40,088 nucleotides of DNA from Eubacteriales bacterium. GTDB lineage: Bacteria; Bacillota; Clostridia; Christensenellales; MGBC116941. Made by a program: the position numbers and the translations under genes. The stretch lies in the NCBI GenBank assembly GCA_031550915.1, contig JAVBOF010000018.1:1-40088 (forward strand), written 5' to 3'. The first letter of the stretch is position 1. Each line of letters opens with the position of its first letter. Shown here piece by piece: positions 5,815-21,681 of this stretch. The notes under the pieces were generated by a model. It was not told where the DNA came from. It saw only the letters and a list, made by a program, of their open reading frames with translations, and did not search any database.

Positions 5815-5844
5815 ATTGATAAATCAAGCCTTTTGGGTTAAAAT
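5815..5844 (+). promoter_or_regulatory. Candidate sigma-A type promoter of minCDE
   Basis: TTGATA (5815-5820), 18-nt spacer, TAAAAT (5839-5844), about 47 nt upstream of the minC ATG. Confidence 0.35.
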
Positions 5845-5890
5845 TATTGGGTCATATTTATTATTATTATTTTTGTTGGGGAGCACCAAA

Positions 5891-6562
5891 ATGCAGGAAG
5901 AATATATAGTATTGAAAGGCCGTAAGGGCGGCTTTGAAATAATACTTTCACAACGGGCGACTTTTTTTATGATAAGGGAAGCGCTTATAGAGAAGCTCAA
6001 TATGAATAAGCGCTTTTTTGAAGGAAGCAATACCAAGGTACGGATAATAGGCAAAAAACTTTCTTTAGCCCAGCAGAGAGAGATAAAGACGATGCTGGAA
6101 AATGCATACGGCATGAACGACGTAGAGTTTTATAAGGATGCGCCGCCCGAAGATGTCAAAACTGACGCGGAGGTTGAAATATCGTCCGCGGTGGCAAGCG
6201 GCTTTATCCGCAAGACTATACGCAGCGGACAAACCATCGAAAGCGAAGGCGACATCGTTATTTTGGGCGATGTGGACACGGGCGCCCAGCTTATCGCCAA
6301 GGGCAGCATATGCGTAATGGGAGAGCTGAAGGGCTCGGCACACGCCGGCTGCAAAGGCAATGAGGATAGCGTAGTATCCGCGCTTGTATTAACGCCTACG
6401 CAATTGAAGATAGCCGATCTGTCTTTGCTTTCAACCGAAGGACAGGAGTACCAACCCCTGTATCCCGAGATTGCAAGGGCGGAAAAAGGCGCAATCGTTA
6501 TTGAACCGCTATATATCCCGCAGGACGCGAGGAAACGAAAACGAAGGATCATCAACAGATAA
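5891..6562 (+). CDS. minC: Septum site-determining protein MinC
   Basis: ATG 5891 (MQEEYIVLKGRKGG) follows GGGGAG. The C-terminal beta-helix repeat is GDIVILGDV..GAQLIAKGSICVMGELKGSAHAG. It is followed by minD and minE. Confidence 0.85.
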   Translation: MQEEYIVLKGRKGGFEIILSQRATFFMIREALIEKLNMNKRFFEGSNTKVRIIGKKLSLAQQREIKTMLENAYGMNDVEFYKDAPPEDVKTDAEVEISSAVASGFIRKTIRSGQTIESEGDIVILGDVDTGAQLIAKGSICVMGELKGSAHAGCKGNEDSVVSALVLTPTQLKIADLSLLSTEGQEYQPLYPEIARAEKGAIVIEPLYIPQDARKRKRRIINR

Positions 6563-6575
6563 TACGGAGGACGCA

Positions 6576-7385
6576 ATGGCTCAGGTATTCGTAATAACAT
6601 CCGGAAAAGGCGGCGTTGGAAAAACCACAACCACGGCTAATATCGGGGCAGGCCTTGCCGCTAAGGGGTATAAAACGGTGATGCTGGATACGGATATCGG
6701 ATTGCGTAACCTTGACGTGGTTTTGGGCCTCGAAAACAGGATAGTATTTGATATAGTCGATGTCGCGGAGGAGAGGTGTAAACTGCGGCAGGCGCTGATT
6801 AAGGATAAACGATTCCCCTCCCTTTTCCTTATGCCCGCTTCCCAAACCAAGGAAAAAAGCGCAATTACCCAGCAGCAAATGATAAAGATAGTGGATCAGC
6901 TAAGGCATGATCATGATTATATAATCATAGACTGCCCTGCCGGAATAGAGCAGGGCTTTAAGAATGCTATCGCGGCGGCAGACCGCGCAATTATAGTTAC
7001 GGTGCCGGAGGTATCGGCCCTGCGTGATGCGGATAGGATCATCGGCCTGCTTGCGGCAAACGATATCACAGATATGAAGCTTATCATCAACCGGCTCCGC
7101 GCCGATATGGTCAAAAGCGGCGGCATGCTGAATATCGACGATACGCTTGATATTTTGGGCATTGACCTTTTGGGCGTCGTTCCAGAAGACGATAATATTT
7201 TGAAGTCCAGCAATACCGGCGAACCGATCGTCACCTTGGATAAAACCCCCGCAGGAAAAGCCTTCGGTAATATAGTCAGCAGGATAATGGGCGAGGATGT
7301 TCCGATTTGTGCGATAGAAGAGGAATCCCGGCTTATGCAAAGGCTGCGCAAGCTGTTTAACGGAAAACAATTGCGGAGGGCATAG
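6576..7385 (+). CDS. minD: Septum site-determining ATPase MinD
   Basis: ATG 6576 follows GGAGG (6566-6570). Deviant Walker A is MAQVFVITSGKGGVGKTT. It has a C-terminal amphipathic tail. The longer track ORF (from 6471) overlaps minC and is rejected. Confidence 0.95.
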   Translation: MAQVFVITSGKGGVGKTTTTANIGAGLAAKGYKTVMLDTDIGLRNLDVVLGLENRIVFDIVDVAEERCKLRQALIKDKRFPSLFLMPASQTKEKSAITQQQMIKIVDQLRHDHDYIIIDCPAGIEQGFKNAIAAADRAIIVTVPEVSALRDADRIIGLLAANDITDMKLIINRLRADMVKSGGMLNIDDTLDILGIDLLGVVPEDDNILKSSNTGEPIVTLDKTPAGKAFGNIVSRIMGEDVPICAIEEESRLMQRLRKLFNGKQLRRA

Positions 7386-7658: not shown

Positions 7659-7724
7659 AATTTTTGCTGGCTTTTAACTGTTTGTTATGATAAAATTTCT
7701 CAAATACATTTGAGGGATTTTTTT

Positions 7725-8966
7725 ATGCTCACTCGTTTAGCTTGCCAACCGATCCTCGATCTGAAGGATAAAGTCTACGCTTATGAGATCCTTTATAGAG
7801 ACAGCGAGGAAAACGCATACAGAGAAGGTACCGACGGTAATATGGCTTCTTCCAGAGTTATGGTAGACAGCTTTTTTGGGTTCGGGATAGATAAACTCGT
7901 AGGAAATAAGATGGCTTTTATCAATTTTACCGAAGAACTTTTGGAAAACGACGTCGCAACTCTCTTTCCGAAGGAGAAGCTTGTTGTAGAAGTGTTGGAG
8001 ACCGTCAGGGTGACCGATACCATAATCGATAGGATAACAACATTAAAAAAAATCGGCTACCAGATAGCTTTAGATGATTTTATGCTTACCGAAGAAATAG
8101 AACCGCTCATAAAGATCGCGGACATTATAAAGCTGGATTTTCTCGAAACTACAATGCCTATGTTGGCGGAATACATAAAAAAGACCTCCCGTACCGGTCT
8201 TAAATACCTTGCCGAAAAGATCGAATCCAATCAATCCTACAATATTGCAAAGAAACTCGGTGTTTCCTATTTCCAGGGTTTCTATTTTAGTAAGCCAATT
8301 GTATATTCCGAATCCGATCTGAAACCGCTTCCAATAAATGAGATGGATCTGCTTCACGCGGTAGATAAAAAGAATTTCAACTTCAACGTTGTCGCAAATA
8401 TCATCAGGCAGGATGTTTCGCTCACATATAAGCTGCTTAGGCTGGCAAATTCCGCCGGCTTTGGATACCGCATGAGGATCAACGATGTTTTGCACGCGCT
8501 TGCGGCCCTCGGTGAAGTCGAAATAAAAAAATGGGTGACTTTGGTTTCCATGATGGGTCTCTGTCAAAACCATCCCCTGGAACTGTTGCGGCTTTCGCTC
8601 CAGCGCGCAAAGTATATGGAGGAGATCGCATACCTCAAAGGTATGAAAGACGCCGCTCCGGGCATGTTTATGACCGGCCTGTTTTCGCTTTTGGAGATTA
8701 TGCTCAACCGGGACTATTTCACCATATTCGAAGAGATTAGCGTTGCCAAAGAGGTTCAGGATGCCTTACTGCATAAAAAAGGCCCCTACCGAAAATTTCT
8801 CAGGCTGGTTATAGCTCACGAACAGGCAAATTGGGACAGGTTCTATGAGGCTGTGGAAAAGCTTGGGCTCAGTGAAGAAAAGCTTATGAACAGTTTCATA
8901 TCCGCCAGCGACTGGAGCAACAAGATAGTCTCCATCGCGGAGGACGAAGAGACAAGAGAAAAATAA
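7725..8966 (+). CDS. EAL domain + HDOD domain protein (putative c-di-GMP phosphodiesterase/effector)
   Basis: ATG 7725 follows GAGGGA. EAL-family catalytic columns are present: EILYR, FINFTE, VVEVLE, ALDDF, IIKLD, AEKIE, QGFYFSKP. The C-terminal half has an HDOD-like LLRLANSAGFG. Confidence 0.85.
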   Translation: MLTRLACQPILDLKDKVYAYEILYRDSEENAYREGTDGNMASSRVMVDSFFGFGIDKLVGNKMAFINFTEELLENDVATLFPKEKLVVEVLETVRVTDTIIDRITTLKKIGYQIALDDFMLTEEIEPLIKIADIIKLDFLETTMPMLAEYIKKTSRTGLKYLAEKIESNQSYNIAKKLGVSYFQGFYFSKPIVYSESDLKPLPINEMDLLHAVDKKNFNFNVVANIIRQDVSLTYKLLRLANSAGFGYRMRINDVLHALAALGEVEIKKWVTLVSMMGLCQNHPLELLRLSLQRAKYMEEIAYLKGMKDAAPGMFMTGLFSLLEIMLNRDYFTIFEEISVAKEVQDALLHKKGPYRKFLRLVIAHEQANWDRFYEAVEKLGLSEEKLMNSFISASDWSNKIVSIAEDEETREK

Positions 8967-9095: not shown

Positions 9096-10283
9096 TTGAG
9101 ACGTTTTAATAAAAAAGCATTAAAAGGCTTCGATTGGATCACCCTCATTCTGGTGACAATAATCGTCCTATACAGCAATATAATCCTGGCGAACGCTTCC
9201 GCAAAGCCATTCACAGGTGAAGAAGCCGGCATACTCGATATCATTGCCAAGATAGATTTCCAGTATGTCAGCAGGCAGAGCCTTTGGTTTTTTATAGGCC
9301 TCGTATTGATGGTCGTTATATGCTTTATAGATTACGAAAACCTTGGCCAGTACGTTAAGATAATCTATATAGCCAATGTAGGTTTTTTGCTTCTGCTAAT
9401 GATATTCGGAACCGAAAAAGGCGGCGCGCAGGGCTGGTTCAGCTTGATCGGGGAACGCACTATCCAGCCTTCAGAGTTCTGTAAGATAAGCCTTATTCTT
9501 ATGCTGGGCAAGATGATATCGACCAAAATCGAATCCAACGGCGGGCCGTTGCGGTTCCGCGATATGCCTTTATTGCTGCTGGTATTACTCGTACCGTTCG
9601 TCATAGTCGCAAGACAGCCGGATCTTGGCACGGCGGCGGTATATATCGTTATCTTCATAGGTATACTGTTTATGGCAAAAACAAGCTTTAAGATAATCGG
9701 CGCTTTCTTGGGCGTGGGAATAATATCCATCCCAATAGCCTACCAGTTCCTGGAAGACTATCAAATAAAGCGCTTGATGCCATTTTTGAATGCCGGAGAT
9801 ACATCCTCACAGAATTCGTCTGCATTCGACCAGGTCGCACAGTCCAAAACCATGATAGGCTCTGGACAGGTGACCGGCAAGGGCCTTTTTTCCGAAGGGA
9901 CCCTTACACAGCTGGATTACATGCCTCAAAGGCGAACAGATTTCATCTTTGCCGTAACGGCCGAATCCGTCGGCTTCATCGGCGGCATCATTCTTCTAGT
10001 GTTGTATTTCGTATTGCTTTTCAGGCTTTTGTATCTGGCATCACAGGCGCCCACTTTGTTCGGCTCTTTGATAATCGTCGGCGTTATGTCGATGCTGTTC
10101 TTCCATATTGTCGAAAATATAGGCACGACAATGGGCCTGCTGCCGCAAACAGGGATTCCGCTTCCTTTCTTTAGCTACGGGGGAAGCAACATGCTAACCA
10201 ATATGATTGCCATAGGCTTTGTTCAAAGCGTAGCGCTTAGACGGCAGAAGAAGACCCTCGAACCCGCTATTACCAATTTTTAA
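9096..10283 (+). CDS. rodA: SEDS family peptidoglycan polymerase (FtsW/RodA/SpoVE), RodA by context
   Basis: TTG start at 9096 follows GGAG. About 10 TM helices. Conserved motifs: RTIQPSEFCKI, RQPDLGTA, RTDFIFAV, PLPFFSYGGSN. Its location after minCDE is the usual rodA position in Clostridia. Confidence 0.8.
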   Translation: MRRFNKKALKGFDWITLILVTIIVLYSNIILANASAKPFTGEEAGILDIIAKIDFQYVSRQSLWFFIGLVLMVVICFIDYENLGQYVKIIYIANVGFLLLLMIFGTEKGGAQGWFSLIGERTIQPSEFCKISLILMLGKMISTKIESNGGPLRFRDMPLLLLVLLVPFVIVARQPDLGTAAVYIVIFIGILFMAKTSFKIIGAFLGVGIISIPIAYQFLEDYQIKRLMPFLNAGDTSSQNSSAFDQVAQSKTMIGSGQVTGKGLFSEGTLTQLDYMPQRRTDFIFAVTAESVGFIGGIILLVLYFVLLFRLLYLASQAPTLFGSLIIVGVMSMLFFHIVENIGTTMGLLPQTGIPLPFFSYGGSNMLTNMIAIGFVQSVALRRQKKTLEPAITNF

Positions 10284-11985: not shown

Positions 11986-12150
11986 ATTTTTACAATAAAT
12001 CTCATATTCAACCTTTCCATTCCAGGATCATTTTTTTTAACGCGTCGCAGGATGATTTTACTGTAAACTCTTTACATTTATGTCTATATTCTGTAACATG
12101 TCTCTTTAGGGATATTTTATTGCAAGCAGCGTGATTTGGAGCAGACAGTA

Positions 12151-13260
12151 ATGAAACGAATAAAAAACCTTTTTTACCAGCACTTTTTTAATTCAGAACT
12201 GCCTTTTGAATATAGGGTGATATCCTATTTTGGCATTATAACTATAGTATTCTCTGTCGTTTCCGTAATCGGTAATTTGTATATAGGACTCTCTTTGTAT
12301 ACATGCATACCTCAAGTGGTCTCTACGGCTTTATCCCTTGTATATTTCTTTTCTTCCTATGCATTAAGGCTAAAGATGATGAAACCTCTTACTTTCATCA
12401 TCGGCTGCGTTTATTTGCCGGCCCTGTTCTTTTTAAGCGGCGGGATCAACGGGACAGGCCTGTTATTTGGAATGTTAGGCATCCTGATATTCTCGCTTGT
12501 CTTTACCCAAAAGACGCGAATAATAGTCCTTTTAATCTATGGGCTGATATTTGTTGCTTTTCTCACCTTGCAGCGTATCTTCCCCGATATTTGTATGGAC
12601 TATCCGGATGAATTCACCCGTTTCTTGGATTTTATTATCTCAGTAATACTGTGTATAGCGGCAATCGCAATGATAACCGCTTCAGTAGTCCGCTCTTATC
12701 ACGTTGAGCACGCAAAGACAAAAAAGCTGCTTGAAAAGGTTGAGCAGCAAAACGCGGAGCTAGAAATCCTTTCGATAACGGATCCGCTTACAAATGTATA
12801 CAATCGCAGGTATTTAGACCAATTTTTGGATTTGGAGATATCTTCATACAAGGAAACCGGACGCGGCCTTTGCGTGATGATGATGGACCTTGATGAGTTT
12901 AAGAAAATAAACGACAGCTTTGGACACGGCTTTGGCGACGAGGTTTTAATAAACTTCTCTAAATGCGCCGTCAGCTCGCTGAGGGATTACGATATTATGG
13001 CAAGATACGGCGGCGAGGAGTTTGTGGCGGTGCTGACGCTTTGCACCCCTCAGGACGCGTACCTGATTGCGGAACGGATACGTGAAAAGACCTCTTCGAT
13101 GGTTTTCCGTTTTAACGCCAAGATCCATGTCAGTATCGGCATAGCCGTGGCAAACGACGATGATACTTCACAAAGCCTTACCGCAAGAGCCGATAAAAAC
13201 CTGTATACCGCAAAATCTTCCGGCAGAAACCGCACAATCATCGATGGCATGGATAAGTAA
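12151..13260 (+). CDS. Membrane-anchored diguanylate cyclase (GGDEF domain)
   Basis: ATG 12151 (MKRIKNLF). About 6 N-terminal TM helices and a coiled linker. GGEEF at 13009-13023 (RYGGEEF) with an RxxD I-site (RDYD) 5 residues upstream. DLDEFKKINDSFGH metal/substrate motif. Confidence 0.9.
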   Translation: MKRIKNLFYQHFFNSELPFEYRVISYFGIITIVFSVVSVIGNLYIGLSLYTCIPQVVSTALSLVYFFSSYALRLKMMKPLTFIIGCVYLPALFFLSGGINGTGLLFGMLGILIFSLVFTQKTRIIVLLIYGLIFVAFLTLQRIFPDICMDYPDEFTRFLDFIISVILCIAAIAMITASVVRSYHVEHAKTKKLLEKVEQQNAELEILSITDPLTNVYNRRYLDQFLDLEISSYKETGRGLCVMMMDLDEFKKINDSFGHGFGDEVLINFSKCAVSSLRDYDIMARYGGEEFVAVLTLCTPQDAYLIAERIREKTSSMVFRFNAKIHVSIGIAVANDDDTSQSLTARADKNLYTAKSSGRNRTIIDGMDK

Positions 13261-13319: not shown

Positions 13320-16300
13320 TTAGTTTTTATAGGCTTCTATCAACTCCGGCTGCTGCGATATAATCTCGATCGACGCAAGCGTTTTCTCATATACTGCAAT
13401 GAAGCCCCCTATCTCAGGATCGTCCGGGCTTACGGTACCAGTTTTTACCATAGATTCCAGCAGCTTGATACCCTCATATATATTATCTAAAGAAAGGTTA
13501 GCGCTTACGCCTTTAAGAGCATGAGCCTTTTGCGCGGCTAATTCCATATCCCCGTCTTTAACTGCCTGCAAAAACTCGTCCTTTATTGTATTCTGAGAGA
13601 ATGTCTGCAAGAGTTTAGAATATATCTTCGAATTGTTAGCAAGCATCTTCATGCCGTTCGCGACGTTCACGCCGAATAATCCCGGCGAACCGGATGTATC
13701 CGATCCGGCACCTCCTCCACCTGCAAAATCATTGTTTGAAAGGTTTTTCCCGCCGTTCCCAACAAGGAATTTATCTAATTCATTAAACATCTTTTCTTCA
13801 TCGATAGGTTTGCTAATGTGGCCGTTCATACCGGCTTCAAAAGCCCTGACGATATCCTCCTTAAATGCATTTGCAGTCATCGCAACTATTGGAATTGTTT
13901 TTGCCGTCTTGGCAGCGCTTCCACGGATCAGCTTTGTGGCCTGATATCCGTCCATATTAGGCATCTGGACGTCCATCAATATCATATCGAATCTGTCCGG
14001 ATCGTTCTCGAACATGGATACCGCAACCGCTCCGTCATTTGCCTCCTCAATTTCTACTTTAGTAGATTCAAGAAGGCTGCACAATATCTCCCTATTTATC
14101 TCAATATCCTCAACAATGAGGATTTTCTTTCCCTTATAAGATATATCTCTGCTGGATCTCGAAACTTTCCGGTTATTTACATCAAATCCAACCGTTTCAT
14201 TTATCGTATTTATAATGGTAGACGGAAAGACCGGCTTTGGCAACATTTTTTTGATACCTAATTCCATTGCCTCAGTTTCAATATCGGTAAAATCATACAT
14301 GGACATGAGAACCAGCGTTATATCCTCTTGCCCCAGTTTCCTTATTTCTTTTGCCGTTTCAAGCCCGCTCATACCATTCATTTTCAGGTCAAGGAATACG
14401 AGCTTATACCCCTGATCAGATTTTTTACTGTTGTTTATGGTTTCTATCGCTTCGTACCCGGAGCTCGCGGTCGTACAGCTGATGCCGTTGTTCTCCAATA
14501 TCGATTTAATATATTCGCATATCTCCTCGCTGTCGTCAACCACCAAAACCTTTAGTTCATGCGCGTGCGCTCCCGGCAGCATGGTGTTCACAAGCCCGCT
14601 TCCGTCCATAACCCCTACCGTAACTTCGACGTGGAAACAGGAGCCGTTTGTATAGCTGTCATCGATGCTGATGGAACCGTTCATCAGCTCGGCAAGCCTT
14701 TTGCTTATCGCGAGGCCCAGACCTGTGCCGCCATAATTCTTCGTGATGCTGCTATCGGCCTGCTCAAACGCCTGAAAAAGTCTTGCCCTCTGCTCATCGC
14801 TGATTCCGATGCCTGTATCGGTTACCTTGAATTCCAATACGACGTCTTTATCCCTTCTTTCCTTTGCCGAAACCGTCAACCCTATCCTTCCGTTTTCCGG
14901 CGTAAATTTAACGGCATTGGACATAAGGTTCAAAATTATCTGCTTTAACCGCATAGCGTCTCCGTAAAGGTTTCTCGGGACGTTGTTTTCTATCTTTACC
15001 ATCAAATCGTGCTGCTTTTCATCCACCTTGACGGCAATAACGTTAATGATCTCTTCAAGCGCGAATTCGAGATCAAACGGCTCATACAGCAGATCAAACT
15101 TGCCGGATTCGATCTTGGAAAGATCGAGTACGTCGTTGATTATCGCAAGCAGATGTTCGGAAGAGATTTCGACTTTATCGAGGCAATCCTTTATCTTGGA
15201 AAGATCGTTGGATACCTGCGCGATCTTCGTCATTCCGATTATCGCGTTCATCGGTGTGCGTATCTCATGGCTCATATTCGAAAGGAACTGACTTTTAGCA
15301 CGGTTTGCGGCTTCAGCCTGATTCTTTGCTATAAGCATCTCCTTTTCCATCATTATCCTATCGGTTATGTCGAAGGTCAAACCTACTGTTCTTATGGATT
15401 TGCCATTTTTATCTTCAATAGTTTTACCATAGTTGTTTATATAACGGATAGAGCCATCCGGGAAGGTCAGCCTGATATCCCTTGCAATATTGGCGTCTTG
15501 CACATTAAGGTTTGTGATGCCCTGGAGGTAGGTTTCCGCTTGACCTTCATCCATAAGGCTATTAAACAGGGAATACAGATCCTTCACGGTCATATTTAAT
15601 TCACTCTGTTTTGGAATCCTGTAAATGCCCGCAAGAATATCGTCATAATTTACTTTATCATTTTCATAATCTATTTCCCAAACTCCCGTACGGGACGCGT
15701 TCAGAGCTATTTCAAGGCGCTCTTTTACATCGCTGACTTCCTTTTGCAGCTTGTTTATCTCCGTTATATCCCTCATTACGCAACCGACGCCGTTGGTTTC
15801 TCCGGCTTCGTTCTTTATCGCAAACAAAGTTACTGCAACGGTCGATACGGTTCCGTCCTTTTTGATAAGGCTGCATTCCGTCTGCCACGTTCCGTCGGTC
15901 GCCGCGATAGTATATCCATGACGAATCAGTTTAGCCGTATCCTTATCGTGTATAAGCTCCGGTGTAAGGTCTAACCCTATCTCTTCTCTGTCCCATCCCG
16001 CCATTTTGTAGGCGCCGTCGTTTAAATACATTAAATTCAGATCCATATCAGAGGCGCTTATAAAATCACTGGAGAACCTTGTTATTGCGGATTGTATCTG
16101 TATATCTATCCTTATCCGCTTCTCCTCGGTGATATCCTTGGATACCGTACCAATACCTATGGCTTTGCCGTCATCGTCCCGTATAGCGAATATCTGCTGT
16201 AAAACATCTATACGAGAGCCGTCTTTGCGGATCATCTGCGTTTCGCCGCGCCATTCATAAGCCTCCTCCGCTGGAAGCGCCATAAGCTCTTTGGCCAAGG

Positions 16301-17819
16301 AATACACCATCTCCGAAGTCGGGTCGTCATGTACCGCGCCGGGATAGAGTTTGTCCTTATCCGTTTCTTCATCCAACCCCAGCATCTTAAACGCTCCGGG
16401 GTTCGCATAAATGTGCTTGATATTCTCATCAGTGGCAGCGACGAAATCATTAAACGATTTCAAAAGGGCGGCTTGCACCTGCGTTTGCTTTATCAGCATC
16501 TTCTGGCCGGTGATATCCATTATTATGGTCCCCAGGGCGATGCGTTTGCCCTCTCTATCTTTGATTGCAACTATGGTTTGCAGGCAATCCTTATGTATAC
16601 CGTCCTTAGTGACTATGCCAACTTCTCCGCTCCATTCCTCGTGGTCGAGCATATAGGGCATAACGGTATTCTTCAGATACGCCGAGCTCCTTTCATCATG
16701 CAGCATCATCGGTTTATCCAGCTCTGAATATTCATATCCCGAAAGCTTCCGTGCTCCGTCGTTTATATAAAGCACACGCATATTGTTGTCACATACTGAT
16801 ACGAAATCCGGAAGGTTATCAAAAATAGCCGCTTGTATTGTAAGAAGCTCCTCGCCTTCCTTTTGTTTGGTAACATCTGAATATACTTCAAGCCGGGCAT
16901 TGTTGTCCGTGCCCCAGTTGATATTGGATAGCTGGCAATTATACCATTTTTTTGCTTTTTCCGAATGTACAAGTTCCCCAGACGTCCCGCCATGCTCGGA
17001 TTCACGCGTACCCCATATCTCGGAATAAGGCTTATGCAAATCTCCATCAAAACTATTTTGGGCAGTTTTGTTCGAATACAGAAGATTCCTACCGTCGCCG
17101 GAGAATATCCGTACTGCCACATTCATGGCATTCAGCGCGTCATATATGCGTTCCCTGTCCCGCTGAATCCTTCTTATCAAAGGTATGTTATATATGCATA
17201 TTCCGATCAGAATAATTATCATCCCTGTTGCAAATATAACAAAAGGTACAGCGGAAAACGAAAAGAACAGCTTTTTAAAAGGTATTTGGTTGAATACCGA
17301 GAGTACCGCCCCATGACTTTCAAATTTATAGCACGTACCAAGCACAAGCATTCCGTTCCTGTCTCTGTTAAACGACGGCGTGCTCATCTCCCCCAGCTTA
17401 GTGTTCAAAACCATCTTACTGTTATCTTCAGAGAGTTTTATATCCGGGGTTTTTCTAATATCGAGCGATGTCACATATTGCGGAAATACCTGGTTGTTAT
17501 AGGCGACCCTGGATAATACCGTTTGAGAATCTATCGGGCCCATCTTGGATTCGGAAGTATAAAGAGAGTTGACAACATCCGTAAGGGTTATGTCGATATC
17601 GCCCGTTTCTAAGAATGATTTGTCGATCATACCTTTTAACATCATGACTTCATTTTCAACAAGGTCTTTTTGATACTTTGAATAAGAATAGTAAGCGTTT
17701 ATGAACATTGATGCAAGTACGGTTACCAGACCGATGCAAAAGAAAAGAATGATCATTTGCACACGCTTTTTATAAGATTTTTCTGCATACTGGCTCTGCC
17801 GCATATACGCCCTCTTCAT
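13320..17819 (-). CDS. Hybrid sensor histidine kinase: 2 TM + extracytoplasmic domain, ~5 PAS, HisKA, HATPase_c, REC, REC, Hpt
   Basis: 1499 aa. TM helices near residues 20-45 and 186-215. Repeated PAS-like segments. H-box SNMSHEIRTPMNAIIGM (His codon 15267-15269). N/G boxes: NLMSNAVKFT, DTGIG, GTGLGLAIS. REC1 is VVDDS...FLDLKMNGMSG...LPKP and REC2 is IVEDI...LMDVQMPNMDG...ISKP. A Gly-rich linker precedes the Hpt AHALKGVSANL (His codon 13521-13523). Confidence 0.9.
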   Translation of the reverse strand: MKRAYMRQSQYAEKSYKKRVQMIILFFCIGLVTVLASMFINAYYSYSKYQKDLVENEVMMLKGMIDKSFLETGDIDITLTDVVNSLYTSESKMGPIDSQTVLSRVAYNNQVFPQYVTSLDIRKTPDIKLSEDNSKMVLNTKLGEMSTPSFNRDRNGMLVLGTCYKFESHGAVLSVFNQIPFKKLFFSFSAVPFVIFATGMIIILIGICIYNIPLIRRIQRDRERIYDALNAMNVAVRIFSGDGRNLLYSNKTAQNSFDGDLHKPYSEIWGTRESEHGGTSGELVHSEKAKKWYNCQLSNINWGTDNNARLEVYSDVTKQKEGEELLTIQAAIFDNLPDFVSVCDNNMRVLYINDGARKLSGYEYSELDKPMMLHDERSSAYLKNTVMPYMLDHEEWSGEVGIVTKDGIHKDCLQTIVAIKDREGKRIALGTIIMDITGQKMLIKQTQVQAALLKSFNDFVAATDENIKHIYANPGAFKMLGLDEETDKDKLYPGAVHDDPTSEMVYSLAKELMALPAEEAYEWRGETQMIRKDGSRIDVLQQIFAIRDDDGKAIGIGTVSKDITEEKRIRIDIQIQSAITRFSSDFISASDMDLNLMYLNDGAYKMAGWDREEIGLDLTPELIHDKDTAKLIRHGYTIAATDGTWQTECSLIKKDGTVSTVAVTLFAIKNEAGETNGVGCVMRDITEINKLQKEVSDVKERLEIALNASRTGVWEIDYENDKVNYDDILAGIYRIPKQSELNMTVKDLYSLFNSLMDEGQAETYLQGITNLNVQDANIARDIRLTFPDGSIRYINNYGKTIEDKNGKSIRTVGLTFDITDRIMMEKEMLIAKNQAEAANRAKSQFLSNMSHEIRTPMNAIIGMTKIAQVSNDLSKIKDCLDKVEISSEHLLAIINDVLDLSKIESGKFDLLYEPFDLEFALEEIINVIAVKVDEKQHDLMVKIENNVPRNLYGDAMRLKQIILNLMSNAVKFTPENGRIGLTVSAKERRDKDVVLEFKVTDTGIGISDEQRARLFQAFEQADSSITKNYGGTGLGLAISKRLAELMNGSISIDDSYTNGSCFHVEVTVGVMDGSGLVNTMLPGAHAHELKVLVVDDSEEICEYIKSILENNGISCTTASSGYEAIETINNSKKSDQGYKLVFLDLKMNGMSGLETAKEIRKLGQEDITLVLMSMYDFTDIETEAMELGIKKMLPKPVFPSTIINTINETVGFDVNNRKVSRSSRDISYKGKKILIVEDIEINREILCSLLESTKVEIEEANDGAVAVSMFENDPDRFDMILMDVQMPNMDGYQATKLIRGSAAKTAKTIPIVAMTANAFKEDIVRAFEAGMNGHISKPIDEEKMFNELDKFLVGNGGKNLSNNDFAGGGGAGSDTSGSPGLFGVNVANGMKMLANNSKIYSKLLQTFSQNTIKDEFLQAVKDGDMELAAQKAHALKGVSANLSLDNIYEGIKLLESMVKTGTVSPDDPEIGGFIAVYEKTLASIEIISQQPELIEAYKN

Positions 17820-17890
17820 CCGTCGATCAAGCGGCAGATAATAATAGACAGGTACAAGTCTGTTGCCGCCATAATTAGTTATATTACCAT

Positions 17891-17917
17891 CTTATTGCTT
17901 CATTTTCAAGCAATAAG
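17891..17917. repeat. Perfect 10-bp inverted repeat in the divergent kinase intergenic region
   Basis: CTTATTGCTT (17891-17900), 7-nt spacer CATTTTC, AAGCAATAAG (17908-17917). Confidence 0.8.
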
Positions 17918-18035
17918 GCCTTTTACATAATTCCGTTTTTAGGGTACTACATTTGCAAATTTTAGTGGATTTATTTATTTTTTGTTGTATACTATGATAT
18001 AAGTGTAATTATAAATTCAGGTGGTTGTGTTGAAG

Positions 18036-20516
18036 ATGGTTGATAATTCCGGAATTATCGTTTCTTTGGGTTGCGTTGCGCACAAGCTGCATAGCGAACA
18101 AAACGGCGCGGTACTTTCATTTGGCGCGCTCGAAAATGTGCTCGGTATTGTTCTGGAAACGCTTGGCGCATATAGGATATCCTTGGCCCGGTATTCCTAT
18201 TCACATGATATACAAATCGTACAGGTTTGCGGGGAAACGTGTACAAACCATTTGCCGCAAGAATTGTTCGAAAAGCTGGCTGCAAGGCTTAAGGAAAAAT
18301 GCCCAAATCCTCTATACGGAAGCGAGCTTTCCTCTTTTCTATATTCAAACGAAAAGGAATATATCAAAAACAAAACTACGGCTTATATCCCGATCTCATC
18401 CGGTGAAACAATATATGCCGTTATTTTGCTTGAATCCGAAGCCGATTTTATGCAGAATAATGACCTAAAGGCGTTTTTATTGGCGGTTTGCGAAATGCTA
18501 ACCACCGCAGAAAAAACCCATTTTTACGCTGATACCGTATGTCCTGACAAAAACATGGTTGCAATGCCGAAAGGTATACAGGATAAAAGAGAAGATATCC
18601 TGTCGCAGATGAGCCTAGAAATACGAACACCGATAAACGCCATAATCGGTCTGGCGCGGGTCGGAGCCGGGTCCGGCGATATAGAAAAAGCAAGAGAATG
18701 CCTCGAAACGATTGAATCGTCCTCCGTAGATCTCTTAAAGACGATAAATGATATCCTCGATATGACCGCTTTAGAGGCTAACAAAATGGTACTGGAGCAC
18801 AGGCCGTTTGATTTAGAAAACATGCTGATGAAACTTGTCAATGTGATTTCCCATAAAACCGCGGACAAGAATCAAAAGCTGCATATACATATACATATCG
18901 GAACGCCGAATCTTTTCTTTGGCGACGAGGCGAGGCTTTCGCAGGTGGTCCAAAACATACTTTCAAACGCCATAAAGTTCACCAGCCACAACGGCAAGGT
19001 GCGTATAGATGTCAAAGAGGTATCAAGGGACGCGGAGTATTCCTGTTTGGAGTTCCGCATCAAGGATACGGGCATCGGCGTTCCAAAGGAACGTCACCCC
19101 CACCTAATCAAGCTCTTTGAAAAAGCGAACGGCGAAGGCGGCCGAAGGTTTGAGGGCAAAGGCCTCGGTCTGGCGATTTCCAGAAACATCATAGACCTAA
19201 TGAATGGAGATATCCGCTTTGAAAGTACAGAAGGCAAAGGAACTGAGTTTGCCTTTACGATAAAACTGAAATATATCGAAGTGCCTACCCAGCACCGTTC
19301 AAAGTTCTCCGAGGATATTGTTTCCACGCTGAGGATCATAAACGTGGATGATACGCAGGAAACCTCTGATTATTTCGAGCAAATAATGGAAGGGTTCAGC
19401 ATTAAGACGGATACCGTACCAAATATCTCCGCGTGTATCGCGGAGCTGGACAAGGCAATAAAATCCGGTAATCCCTATAACCTTATCTTCGTCGATTGGA
19501 ATATGCTGAAAAGCAGCGGATTGAACACCGCCCGAAGCATATTTACAAAATATGGTTGCTGGATCATGGTATTGATACCAACCGCGCAGCGCAGCGAATC
19601 CTTGATCGATTCGCGTGAATTCGGCATTATAAAATATATAGACAAGCCTTTTTTCCCGTCAATGCTTTTCAACGCCCTACAGGAATTCATACATTTCCGT
19701 GAAGAGCCGGTCGGATCGGATCTATCCAGAAAGTATATCTTCTCCGGTCATACGGTTTTGCACGTTGAGGATTTTGAAATTAACAGGGACATTCTCGGAA
19801 GATCTTTGGAAGCCGCTAAAATAAACGTTGTCCCTGCAGAAAACGGTAAAATTGCCTATGAGCTATTTAAAGTGAACCCCGATATGTACGATCTTATCCT
19901 TATGGATATAAATATGCCGATTATGGACGGATATGAAGCAACCGAGCTAATACGCTCCTTGCCTTTTCCAAAGGCCAAAACCATACCGATACTCGCTGTT
20001 ACGGCAAATGCCTTTGAAGAGGATGTCAATCGCAGTAAAGCAGTTGGCATGAACGGCCATCTGACCAAGCCGGTAGATTTGGATACCTTGTTTTCGCTCA
20101 TGTCCAAGCTATTCTCTGAAAAGAGCTTAGGGAGCAATATCGGGGCGGAAAGTGAAATAATCTTAGAGAACGCAAACCGTGAATCCAACAAATATATTGG
20201 CTATGACGAAGCCCTCCGGCACGTGAATAACAGCCGCCGCGTATTAAAAACGCTTTTAACGAGTTTCAAGAACAATACCAAGCTGGATAAACTCGTGGAT
20301 GCAGTCGCCGCGGATAATTTTTCTTCCGCCGCAAAAATAGCTAAGGAGATCATGCAGGTTGCAGAAAACCTGTATCTTTTTGCGCTTGTAGATAGTTTGG
20401 CGGTTTTAATTATGCAGTTTAACGATAATTATGTACTAGAAGAATCCATGATGGACTTGGAAAATGTATACTCTATTACCTCAAAACATATAGAGGAGCT
20501 TGTTAAATCGCTATAG
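18036..20516 (+). CDS. Hybrid histidine-kinase-like protein lacking both phospho-acceptor His: GAF-like N-term, HisKA(H->L), HATPase_c, REC, REC, degenerate Hpt(H->K)
   Basis: Start is ambiguous (GTG 18021, TTG 18030, ATG 18036; AGGTGG at 18019-18024). There is no TM segment. H-box reads SQMSLEIRTPINAIIG (Leu CTA at 18615-18617). N/G boxes are intact (QNILSNAIKFT, DTGIG, GKGLGLAIS). REC1 is NVDDT...IFVDWNM...IDKP and REC2 is HVEDF...LMDINMPIMDG...LTKP. The Hpt-like helix is AAKIAKEIMQVAENL (Lys AAG 20343-20345). Confidence 0.85.
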   Translation: MVDNSGIIVSLGCVAHKLHSEQNGAVLSFGALENVLGIVLETLGAYRISLARYSYSHDIQIVQVCGETCTNHLPQELFEKLAARLKEKCPNPLYGSELSSFLYSNEKEYIKNKTTAYIPISSGETIYAVILLESEADFMQNNDLKAFLLAVCEMLTTAEKTHFYADTVCPDKNMVAMPKGIQDKREDILSQMSLEIRTPINAIIGLARVGAGSGDIEKARECLETIESSSVDLLKTINDILDMTALEANKMVLEHRPFDLENMLMKLVNVISHKTADKNQKLHIHIHIGTPNLFFGDEARLSQVVQNILSNAIKFTSHNGKVRIDVKEVSRDAEYSCLEFRIKDTGIGVPKERHPHLIKLFEKANGEGGRRFEGKGLGLAISRNIIDLMNGDIRFESTEGKGTEFAFTIKLKYIEVPTQHRSKFSEDIVSTLRIINVDDTQETSDYFEQIMEGFSIKTDTVPNISACIAELDKAIKSGNPYNLIFVDWNMLKSSGLNTARSIFTKYGCWIMVLIPTAQRSESLIDSREFGIIKYIDKPFFPSMLFNALQEFIHFREEPVGSDLSRKYIFSGHTVLHVEDFEINRDILGRSLEAAKINVVPAENGKIAYELFKVNPDMYDLILMDINMPIMDGYEATELIRSLPFPKAKTIPILAVTANAFEEDVNRSKAVGMNGHLTKPVDLDTLFSLMSKLFSEKSLGSNIGAESEIILENANRESNKYIGYDEALRHVNNSRRVLKTLLTSFKNNTKLDKLVDAVAADNFSSAAKIAKEIMQVAENLYLFALVDSLAVLIMQFNDNYVLEESMMDLENVYSITSKHIEELVKSL

Positions 20517-20562
20517 TTTTGATATAATCTTTTGGATAATTGGTTTCTAGGGGGAACGAATT

Positions 20563-21639
20563 TTGTCGATGTCCAGCATCCTTATAGTTGACGATGTTGA
20601 AATCAACAGGCTGATACTTAGAGAGATACTTTCTGCCGATTATGATATTCTTGAGGCAGAGAGTGGTCTTGAAGCCATAGATCTATTATACAATATCGGA
20701 GATCTGCCACAGGCCGTTCTATTGGATATTATGATGCCCGGCATGGATGGTTTCGAAGTCCTTTCCATGATAAAATCCAACCCCCGCACGGATAAGATCC
20801 CGGTTCTGTTCATCACGGCTGCCGACGCCAGCACAAACGAATCCAAGGGCTTGAAGGAAGGCGCCGCCGACTATATCTCCAAACCGTTCAACCCCGATGT
20901 TGTCAAGGCCAGGGTCGAGAGCCAGATACAGCTTAAAAAATACCGTGACGGGCTTGAGATCATGCTAGAAAAGAAAACGGACGAGCTTATCACTACGCAT
21001 GAACGCACTTTGGAAACGCTTGCAACTATAATCGAATACAGAAGTCTTGAAAGCGGTACGCATATCCGCCGCTCAAGCGAACTATCAAGGGTTTTGATCC
21101 ATGCGCTTTTAAAGCATGATAATTTCAAAAAAGAACTAGTTAACATTCATTATAATTCAATAATAAAGGCGGTTGCCCTTCACGATATCGGTAAAATAGG
21201 CATTCCCGACAGCATTTTACTCAAGCCCGGCAAATTGACGGATGAAGAATTTGCCGTAATAAAAGAACATACGCTGATAGGCAGTAAAATAATCGAAACT
21301 ATTGCAGAAAACGCCTTCGACGATGCAATGTATCTTACACATTGCCGCGAGATATGCAGATACCATCACGAGCGGTGGGATGGCAAAGGATACCCCGATA
21401 AGCTTTCGGGGCTGGACATACCCCTTTCCGCAAGGATACTGTCCATAGTTGATGTGTATGACGCGCTTGTAAACGAACGTTGCTACAAGCCCGCTATGTC
21501 GCACGAAGCCGCGATGGATATTATAAGAGAAGGCATCGGCACTCAGTTTGATCCCGACATCGGAGAGATAGTCCTCGGCATCAGCGATAAGTTCAAATCA
21601 ATCGAAAAGACGATCAAGGATGAAGAACAGAACAATTAA
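20563..21639 (+). CDS. Response regulator with HD-GYP output domain (c-di-GMP phosphodiesterase, RpfG-type)
   Basis: TTG 20563 lies 7 nt after AGGGGGA; an alternative ATG is at 20569. REC: ILIVDDVE...VLLDIMMPGMDG...FITA...ISKP. HD-GYP: ALHDIGKIGIP and HHERWDGKGYP. Confidence 0.9.
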   Translation: MSMSSILIVDDVEINRLILREILSADYDILEAESGLEAIDLLYNIGDLPQAVLLDIMMPGMDGFEVLSMIKSNPRTDKIPVLFITAADASTNESKGLKEGAADYISKPFNPDVVKARVESQIQLKKYRDGLEIMLEKKTDELITTHERTLETLATIIEYRSLESGTHIRRSSELSRVLIHALLKHDNFKKELVNIHYNSIIKAVALHDIGKIGIPDSILLKPGKLTDEEFAVIKEHTLIGSKIIETIAENAFDDAMYLTHCREICRYHHERWDGKGYPDKLSGLDIPLSARILSIVDVYDALVNERCYKPAMSHEAAMDIIREGIGTQFDPDIGEIVLGISDKFKSIEKTIKDEEQNN

Positions 21640-21652
21640 CGCTTTGGCGCGA

Positions 21653-21681
21653 ACCCTGCAATAATCATGCAGGGTCTTTTT
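21653..21681 (+). terminator. Intrinsic terminator after the REC-HD-GYP gene
   Basis: ACCCTGCA (21653-21660), 7-nt loop, TGCAGGGT (21668-21675), followed by CTTTTTAT. Confidence 0.75.

Follow-up and report, generated by a model that had tools for sequence, protein, structure and literature searches.

What can a hybrid histidine kinase still do when both of the histidines on which it would carry phosphate are gone? This question is raised by a gene on the + strand (18036..20516) of contig JAVBOF010000018.1 from an Eubacteriales bacterium (GenBank assembly GCA_031550915.1), a stretch of 40,088 nucleotides that is referred to here as the window. The gene encodes a protein of 826 amino acids (aa), counted from an ATG; an in-frame GTG also occurs at 18021, and an AGGTGG ribosome-binding site is present at 18019-18024, ahead of the open reading frame. 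The reading frame, Pfam matches, an AlphaFold2 model and a fold match to the kinase ShkA together indicate the domain order GAF-DHp-CA-REC1-REC2-Hpt-like, without a His in either acceptor position. The next gene on the same strand (20569..21639, the start being taken from the database entry) encodes a REC-HD-GYP response regulator of 356 aa, a predicted cyclic di-GMP (c-di-GMP) phosphodiesterase with Pfam Response_reg and HD_5 matches and an HHERWDGKGYP motif. The sequence comparisons make it near certain that the 826-aa protein is a divergent orthologue in an RpfC-like family that lacks a PAS module, the H-box His and the Hpt His. Of the accounts considered for what it does, the best overall is that this divergent orthologue acts as a phosphate sink or phosphatase branch, which we put forward tentatively.

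The absence of the H-box His was evaluated against the 120 best database relatives, a set that includes the 826-aa protein and 119 others. It was found that 126 of the 127 H-box motifs in this set contain His, the sole exception being the 826-aa protein, which has Leu194 (codon CTA, 18615..18617) in this column, and the orthologues and the neighbouring kinase described below use CAT or CAC at this codon. In a search of solved structures, Leu194 aligned to the phospho-His ('msHEirtp') of the kinases GacS (7z8n) and RetS (6dk8), and the HK853 and DivL structures were also strong matches. There is no His anywhere in residues 163-254, and the E195-x-x-T198 motif directly after Leu194 is retained. 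On these alignments, loss of the H-box His is unique to the window protein among the relatives compared. A Pfam scan recognized HisKA at residues 185-248 with a score of 42.4 bits, above the 26.9-bit cut-off despite the Leu in the His column, as well as HATPase_c at residues 296-412 (99.7 bits) and two Response_reg domains, and it returned no match to Hpt (PF01627).

The C-terminal domain (20202..20510) on its own gave only chance matches in the Protein Data Bank and no Hpt, and a profile search was required. A profile built from 13 related C-terminal domains and searched against solved structures matched the Hpt domains 7c1i (E = 1e-5), RcsD (1sr2) and 3myf, with the His column of the profile aligned to the phospho-His of these structures. 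In the 826-aa protein this column is occupied by Lys770 (codon AAG, 20343..20345), as in the alignment to the neighbouring kinase, and the K and G columns of the HxxKG helix are also lost alongside the His. The only His residues of the domain, H729 and H818, are both off the acceptor helix. The helices of the predicted bundle had pLDDT (predicted local distance difference test) values of 89-97. From the profile and the model, the domain is a helical bundle homologous to Hpt that, taken alone, is too divergent for the Pfam Hpt family.

Most of the remaining catalytic residues are retained. The AlphaFold2 model of the 826-aa protein, run with the 120-sequence alignment, had pLDDT values above 90 for most of the DHp hairpin, the CA domain, both receivers and the bundle of C-terminal helices, and its closest fold match was full-length ShkA (6qrj, E = 2.7e-25, 518 aligned columns). 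The DHp (HisKA) hairpin (residues 179-247, 18570..18776) consists of helices 179-212 and 216-247. The CA (HATPase_c) domain (18801..19274) keeps the N box, G1 and the G2 core (GxGLGL), specifically N307/N311/K314, D344xGxG and G376LGL, and nucleotide binding is predicted from this sequence. Both receivers have their Asp and Lys. REC1 (19332..19703) contains D437/D438, D487 and K537, with an ambiguous Thr/Ser column (IPTA vs. ISVS) and Leu in place of P491. REC2 (19752..20126; Pfam residues 574-687) is a canonical hybrid-kinase receiver, aligned to the receivers of AHK4, RcsC and SLN1, and retains the acidic pair E578/D579, D624, T656 and K678, all of which are invariant or near-invariant positions of the family. 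Looking specifically at the 44 columns that are invariant in the 119 relatives, we found that the 826-aa protein differs at four (K185R, F188I, H194L and S244T), all in DHp: 4 of 15 invariant positions are changed in this domain vs. 0 of 29 in CA, REC1 and REC2 combined (one-sided Fisher p = 0.010), with 15 of 15 kept in CA and 13 of 13 in REC2.

A preliminary description of this gene, made from its sequence, had reported the loss of both phospho-accepting His residues, of the Hpt K and G columns and of any alternative His nearby, together with retention of the N box, G1, G2 and the receiver Asp and Lys residues. All of this held when examined with relatives, solved kinases, Pfam and the 13-domain profile, and the positions given for Leu194, Lys770 and the two His of the neighbouring kinase (His851 and His1433) were exact; the statement about the ATP-binding boxes needs the qualifier that four residues of the ATP lid and the G2 flank, listed below, are substituted. 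The term pseudo-kinase used there is likewise justified, as HisKA scores above its cut-off with Leu in the acceptor column.

These residues suggest that the 826-aa protein would be unable to autophosphorylate on the canonical His or to relay phosphate via its own Hpt-like domain, and that it would accept phosphate only on its receiver Asp residues. Pseudo-histidine kinases form an established class, defined by Collins and Childers in 2021 (as cited in PMC12632262), with examples such as DivL, PsmA and RocA, and the 826-aa protein is a new example; its pseudo-state is known from one unreplicated sequence in a metagenome-assembled contig. A survey found the His to be missing in 722 of 76,471 HisKA domains and in 90 of 10,312 Hpt domains, 0.9% in each case (PMC12632262), and the Hpt His has been lost repeatedly in the lineage studied here, so that the loss is less unusual than had been supposed. 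Like the 826-aa protein, DivL of Caulobacter and PsmA of Streptomyces have a HisKA/HATPase_c core with a non-His residue in the acceptor column, and the DivL structure 4q20 was a strong match in both sequence and fold. DivL differs in that Tyr takes the place of its His, receivers are absent, and the protein is conserved and senses DivK~P. PsmA is also of hybrid type with a receiver, but it has lost the ATP-binding motifs and ExxT and has no Hpt (PMC12963549). In contrast to both, the 826-aa protein keeps the ATP-binding core, ExxT and two receivers with their catalytic residues, and it carries a degenerate Hpt.

ShkA of Caulobacter has the same DHp-CA-Rec1-Rec2 order, but its His is present and it is an active kinase whose Rec1 is a pseudo-receiver that binds c-di-GMP, with S255/P256 at the acidic pair (10.1101/675454). 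A ShkA-like pseudo-receiver was considered for the 826-aa protein and does not fit at the acidic pair, as its REC1 keeps D437/D438 plus the Asp and Lys; the comparison covered these positions and not the c-di-GMP-binding residues.

The 826-aa protein had initially been described as a paralogue of the kinase encoded divergently next to it. A BLASTP comparison of the two proteins gave 35% identity over 614 aa (E = 4e-113), collinear across the DHp-CA-REC1-REC2-Hpt region, in agreement with the reported domain-for-domain match of the transmitter halves. However, identity over the core was 45.5% to P0002, 43.1% to P0003 and 40.7% to P0004 (overall identity of these three, 39-41%), compared to 37.7% to the neighbour. 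Because the 826-aa protein is closer to P0002, P0003 and P0004, which are all encoded beside REC-HD-GYP genes, it is by sequence a divergent orthologue of a separate kinase lineage and not a recent copy of the neighbour, and the label of paralogue does not apply. The members of this lineage have GAF and/or a Cys-rich PAS-like module followed by DHp-CA-REC-REC-Hpt, are cytoplasmic, and lie directly upstream of the REC-HD-GYP gene on the same strand. In the window, the co-orientation of the two genes noted previously is reinforced by the absence of a terminator-like site from the stretch 20516-20569 between them and by the recurrence of the pairing beside relatives, and a terminator-like hairpin (21653..21675, + strand) ends the two-gene unit. 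The window regulator is 67% identical to that of P0002, 75% to that of P0003 and 51% to the regulator of a further kinase, P0034, so that by regulator identity the P0003 operon is the closest. The window regulator has 22 unique changes vs. 26 in the orthologue beside P0003, an equal rate; therefore, the pathway appears to be still in use.

Relatives that share Leu194 were sought in several ways. Searched at full length against 5.8 billion clusters, the protein recovered itself and then matches of 41% identity or less, none of them an orthologue with Leu194; among 15 billion sequences it stands as a singleton, also at the 90% identity level. A profile search from an alignment for relatives sharing Leu194 gave no match, N-terminal peptides brought up no relative in a metagenome scan, and a scan of GTDB with the HD-GYP regulator found related regulators, none of which had a His-less HisKA upstream. 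The preliminary description had suggested examining orthologues for conservation of Leu, and no orthologue in these searches shares it. For a dN/dS comparison, synonymous sites would be saturated, because the orthologues are at most 45% identical at the protein level.

The N-terminal domain (residues 1-168, 18036..18539) was the most difficult to assign. Residues ~1-170 had no Pfam match, and with the N-terminus as phmmer query, 1.84 billion representatives yielded nothing beyond the protein itself and a single short match (residues 11-60, E 7e-7) in the 3410-aa protein P0121. The N-terminus is weakly and collinearly similar to the N-termini of P0003 (E = 1e-6) and P0002 (E = 3e-5), and the N-terminus of P0003 scores above the Pfam GAF cut-off. 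The first AlphaFold2 run left this region unfolded, and a dedicated four-sequence alignment was then used, with which residues 1-180 were modelled at a pLDDT of 80.3 and a pTM (predicted template modelling score) of 0.76. The top Foldseek matches of this model were GAF-containing structures, including the isolated GAF domains of Nlh1 (4g3k) and PtsP (3ci6), and the query-normalised TM-scores to GAF structures were mostly 0.5-0.62. These results support a GAF-like domain at the level of the fold, as the preliminary description had proposed. Its further statement that GAF replaces the sensor was correct only as to the presence of a GAF domain: the orthologues P0002 and P0003 combine GAF with a Cys-rich PAS-like module, and in the window protein GAF was kept whereas the PAS module and the helical linker were lost.

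This Cys-rich PAS-like module (~120 aa) and a coiled coil are located just upstream of the H-box in P0002, P0003, P0004 and other relatives. The module, possibly metal- or redox-binding, was observed with the motif C-W ... C-x2-C-P in P0002, P0003, P0004, P0006, P0009 and the protein encoded at L006 4382-5977. At the aligned place (~18540-18569) the window protein retains only 'VCPDKNMV', within the short, Pro-containing, non-helical linker from GAF to DHp (18540..18569) that is seen in both the alignment and the model.

Loss of the Hpt His extends beyond the window protein. The His is missing in five of the 13 aligned C-terminal domains, the residue in its place being Lys in the 826-aa protein, Arg in P0003, Asn in P0006, Ser in the L018 protein and Gln in the L006 protein; P0002 keeps both His, and all relatives keep the H-box His. 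The codons in the window gene (AAG) and in that of P0003 (AGG) are one step apart. Because of this one-step difference and because the P0003 operon is the closest (75%), the Hpt His was probably already lost in the common ancestor with P0003. Next to P0003, and divergently transcribed, is a gene for a free-standing Hpt of 123 aa with an intact His (L002 459-830, - strand), which is 46% identical and 70% similar to the Hpt of the neighbouring kinase in the window (E = 2e-38) over its full length, including a distinctive C-terminal tail. We infer that P0003, with Arg in its own Hpt, uses this external Hpt. Free-standing Hpt genes with an intact His were also found immediately upstream of related HD-GYP regulators at L005 5548-5892 (+) and L010 5609-5965 (+), the free-standing Hpts beside REC-HD-GYP genes spanning 115-123 aa. 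Since Hpt genes adjoin the regulators in L002, L005 and L010, and a kinase of the P0034 type does so as well, the regulator family appears to be served by Hpt donors.

Two other degenerate kinases were observed beside regulators of this family. The L018 gene (4342-5958, + strand), from the Clostridiales metagenome-assembled genome Nt197P3bin80, lies upstream of an HD-GYP regulator 52% identical to that of the window and encodes the converse case, a sensor-less HisKA protein with the His kept (SHELFTP), a CA domain without G1 ('ACTGTS') and G2 ('YGEIELSL'), one receiver and an Hpt-like domain. The L006 gene (4382-5977, + strand), from a Synergistaceae metagenome-assembled genome, is beside a regulator 60% identical to that of the window and encodes a kinase without any receiver, in which a Cys-type PAS, HisKA and HATPase are joined to an Hpt-like domain whose His column holds Gln, with a His located two positions before it.

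The candidate Hpt donor in the window is the neighbouring kinase of 1499 aa (13320..17819, - strand), which is separated from the His-less gene by a divergent intergenic region (17820..18035) and consists of a membrane sensor, PAS repeats, HisKA, HATPase_c, two REC domains and Hpt. It keeps both His, namely His851 (CAT, 15267-15269) in the H-box and His1433 (13521-13523) in the Hpt, the latter being the only His-bearing Hpt in the window. P0034 is collinear with this kinase (43% identity over 833 residues, with the N-terminal sensor aligned and the same Hpt tail), and its gene immediately follows a REC-HD-GYP gene in the same orientation. Three points make the neighbour the probable partner kinase of the window regulator: the P0034 pairing, the likeness of its Hpt to the free-standing Hpt beside P0003, and its possession of the one Hpt in the window that has a His. 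The other kinase on the P0002 contig was considered as an orthologue of this neighbour and rejected because of its single receiver and an identity of 37%.

The organization of the window resembles RpfC/RpfG of Xanthomonas, in which a hybrid kinase relays phosphate via its Hpt to a REC-HD-GYP c-di-GMP phosphodiesterase (PMC3749722). The likeness is one of architecture (HisKA-HATPase-REC-Hpt) and gene pairing, with the kinase and REC-HD-GYP genes co-oriented and adjacent in the window and beside P0002, P0003, P0004 and P0034 (those regulators that were compared being 51-75% identical to that of the window). RpfC differs in being membrane-bound and DSF-sensing (diffusible signal factor), with one receiver and both His, whereas the 826-aa protein is cytoplasmic, with a GAF domain, two receivers and neither His. 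A relay of its own from H1 through D1 and H2 to D2 on the regulator was accordingly not found in the 826-aa protein, from which H1 and H2 are absent.

If the 826-aa protein acts as a sink, the donor would be the Hpt of the divergently encoded 1499-aa kinase, and the 826-aa protein would compete with the HD-GYP regulator for phosphate on this Hpt. REC2 is a plausible client, because it is a canonical receiver and 50% identical to REC2 of the neighbour. The phosphate would then be drained by autodephosphorylation of the receivers, possibly aided by a His-independent phosphatase activity of the E-x-x-T motif in DHp; the HisKA phosphatase motif has been given as D/ExxT/N (PMC12963549), and phosphatase activity has been reported not to require the HisKA His (PMC12632262). 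Phosphorylation-dependent c-di-GMP hydrolysis would as a result be damped or timed. As for how this arrangement may have evolved, the Hpt His would have been lost first, in the common ancestor with P0003, with an external Hpt taking over, and the H-box His and PAS module would have been lost later, when a second complete kinase served the same regulator. The sink mechanism taken by itself is more doubtful than the overall account, and we would not call it likely.

A precedent is RetS of Pseudomonas aeruginosa, which siphons phosphate and dephosphorylates the GacS receiver rather than phosphorylating a regulator of its own (PMC5992135); the proposed sink and phosphatase would parallel two of the three routes by which RetS attenuates GacS (PMC5992135). 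RetS has the order HisKA-HATPase-REC-REC and its kinase region is a close match to the 826-aa protein, but its H-box His is present, its sensor is periplasmic, it has no Hpt-like domain, and its interaction with the partner has been shown experimentally, whereas the present proposal is drawn from sequence. A degenerate Hpt is found in Arabidopsis AHP6, a free-standing plant pseudo-HPt with Asn replacing the His that inhibits the relay. The Hpt-like domain of the 826-aa protein shares the Hpt fold with a non-phosphorylatable residue, and it differs in being fused to a kinase that lacks the H-box His.

Several observations weigh against the account of a phosphate sink or phosphatase branch. Alignment showed that the 826-aa protein is without the PAS-like module and coiled-coil linker, a loss that is unique to it, and residues 168-178 have no helix and a pLDDT below 50, so that the helical GAF-DHp link is lost. 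In the ATP lid and the G2 flank, near-invariant residues have changed at four positions (F358I, Q363K, G373E and T375K), and an intact CA domain is not obviously needed by a pure sink. These four belong to a total of 21 deviations at the 120 columns with a conservation of 90% or more, the median being 2. No orthologue or conspecific with Leu194 was found in the searches described above, and for upkeep of the pseudo-state by selection the support is indirect, coming from the invariant positions. The domain-specific signal rests on few sites, and the rate of the protein is not significantly above that of its sister P0003: 83 unique changes vs. 66 (relative-rate test, p = 0.19), although it is faster than P0002. 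A lineage-specific acceleration had been considered and was dropped for this reason. Lastly, a promoter-like site within the 3' end of the kinase gene (20500-20528, + strand; TTGTTA-17-TATAAT with an upstream TG, 10 of 12 matches) could supply the HD-GYP regulator with its own transcript, uncoupled from the pseudokinase gene.

The loss of the PAS module and the GAF-DHp linker and the 21 deviations also fit early decay of a redundant kinase. According to this explanation, the sensor and both His were lost after the neighbour had come to serve the same regulator, and the gene is functionless, with an open reading frame that is unbroken so far. The PAS module, H1 and H2 would count as three independent losses, the protein is a singleton whose Leu occurs in no orthologue, the neighbour alone provides a complete H1-D1-H2 relay, and kinases of the P0034 type pair with an HD-GYP regulator without a second kinase. 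In contrast, the open reading frame is intact over 826 codons, all of the core domains are folded by AlphaFold2 with pLDDT mostly above 90, and most of the deviations are conservative (K to R, F to I, S to T and M to L). The rate of change does not exceed that of P0003, which keeps H1. Furthermore, the changes at invariant positions are confined to DHp while 29 of 29 such positions in CA and the receivers are kept, which argues against simple decay. We consider decay to be unlikely, yet a serious competitor.

A different possibility is that the protein works independently of phosphorylation, as a scaffold or adaptor that binds the HD-GYP regulator, the neighbouring kinase or a GGDEF protein. 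Such a role has precedents in DivL and PsmA (PMC4211667, PMC12963549) and in the interaction of the RpfC receiver with RpfF, a role of RpfC that is independent of the phosphorelay (PMC3749722). The confident fold of the His-less Hpt-like bundle is consistent with such a function, as is the recurrence of His-less Hpt-like domains, which suggests a His-independent role, and genes for GGDEF and EAL-HDOD proteins are nearby. On the other hand, the catalytic residues of the receivers and the nucleotide-binding core, which would be needless for a pure scaffold, are kept, whereas PsmA has lost its ATP motifs and ExxT (PMC12963549). We regard a scaffold as improbable.

Somewhat more improbable still is a DHp heterodimer with the 1499-aa kinase, in which the 826-aa protein would either block autophosphorylation of its partner, as RetS does with GacS (PMC5992135, PMC8498467), or trans-phosphorylate the partner His in the manner of CheA4-CheA3. 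The retained DHp hairpin and intact CA core, the adjacency and divergent transcription of the two kinase genes, and the presence of RetS kinase-region structures among the close sequence and fold matches are in keeping with this proposal. However, DHp, through which the two would pair, is the most drifted domain, with an identity to the neighbour of 47% that is the lowest of all pairs compared; the two proteins belong to different kinase lineages; and residues of the ATP lid are substituted. Of the roles that the preliminary description had put forward (trans-phosphorylation, a sink or a gate for flow to the regulator), the comparative data favour the reading as a receiver or sink over trans-phosphorylation.

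An error of sequencing, assembly or binning, or a rare allele, in this single metagenome-assembled contig, of which no second copy exists in any collection, is very improbable: CTA is two bases from CAT or CAC, so that one miscalled base cannot account for Leu194, the Hpt helix is altered at its His, Lys and Gly columns together, the frame is intact, the flanking DHp residues have diverged too, and the sister P0003 independently shows loss of the Hpt His.

The surroundings of the two kinase genes were also inspected. They are flanked by three c-di-GMP-related genes (EAL-HDOD, GGDEF and REC-HD-GYP) within 14 kb: a partial EAL with HDOD at 7710-8966 (+), a membrane GGDEF cyclase (GGEEF) at 12136-13260 (+), and the regulator gene at 20569-21639 (+). 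Upstream, at 5816-7385 (+) and 9096-10283 (+), are minC, minD and a gene of the rodA/ftsW family, because of which we take the context to be ordinary chromosomal DNA and not a mobile element.

Annotation pipelines would call the 826-aa protein a kinase, an activity that should not be assumed. If the gene is merely decaying, it would represent ordinary redundancy-driven gene loss. If it is functional, it would be a compact natural case in which a two-component kinase has been turned into a modulator that accepts phosphate within the pathway of a c-di-GMP phosphodiesterase. In its strongest form, which we think rather unlikely on the sequence data, it would be a naturally evolved receiver-only hybrid kinase, with a nucleotide-binding, His-less transmitter, whose receivers and ExxT DHp serve as a dedicated sink or phosphatase for a relay that a second kinase drives from Hpt to HD-GYP; the gain or the timing of c-di-GMP hydrolysis would in that case be under the control of a pseudokinase, and the locus would record a stepwise route in which the Hpt His was lost and its function outsourced before the H-box His was lost. 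P0002 (with both His), P0003 (Hpt His lost, external Hpt) and the L018 protein (His kept, degenerate ATP site) may be viewed as intermediate stages. This comparative series around one conserved HD-GYP regulator is the most interesting aspect of the locus and would be useful for understanding multikinase networks and the origins of pseudo-kinases.

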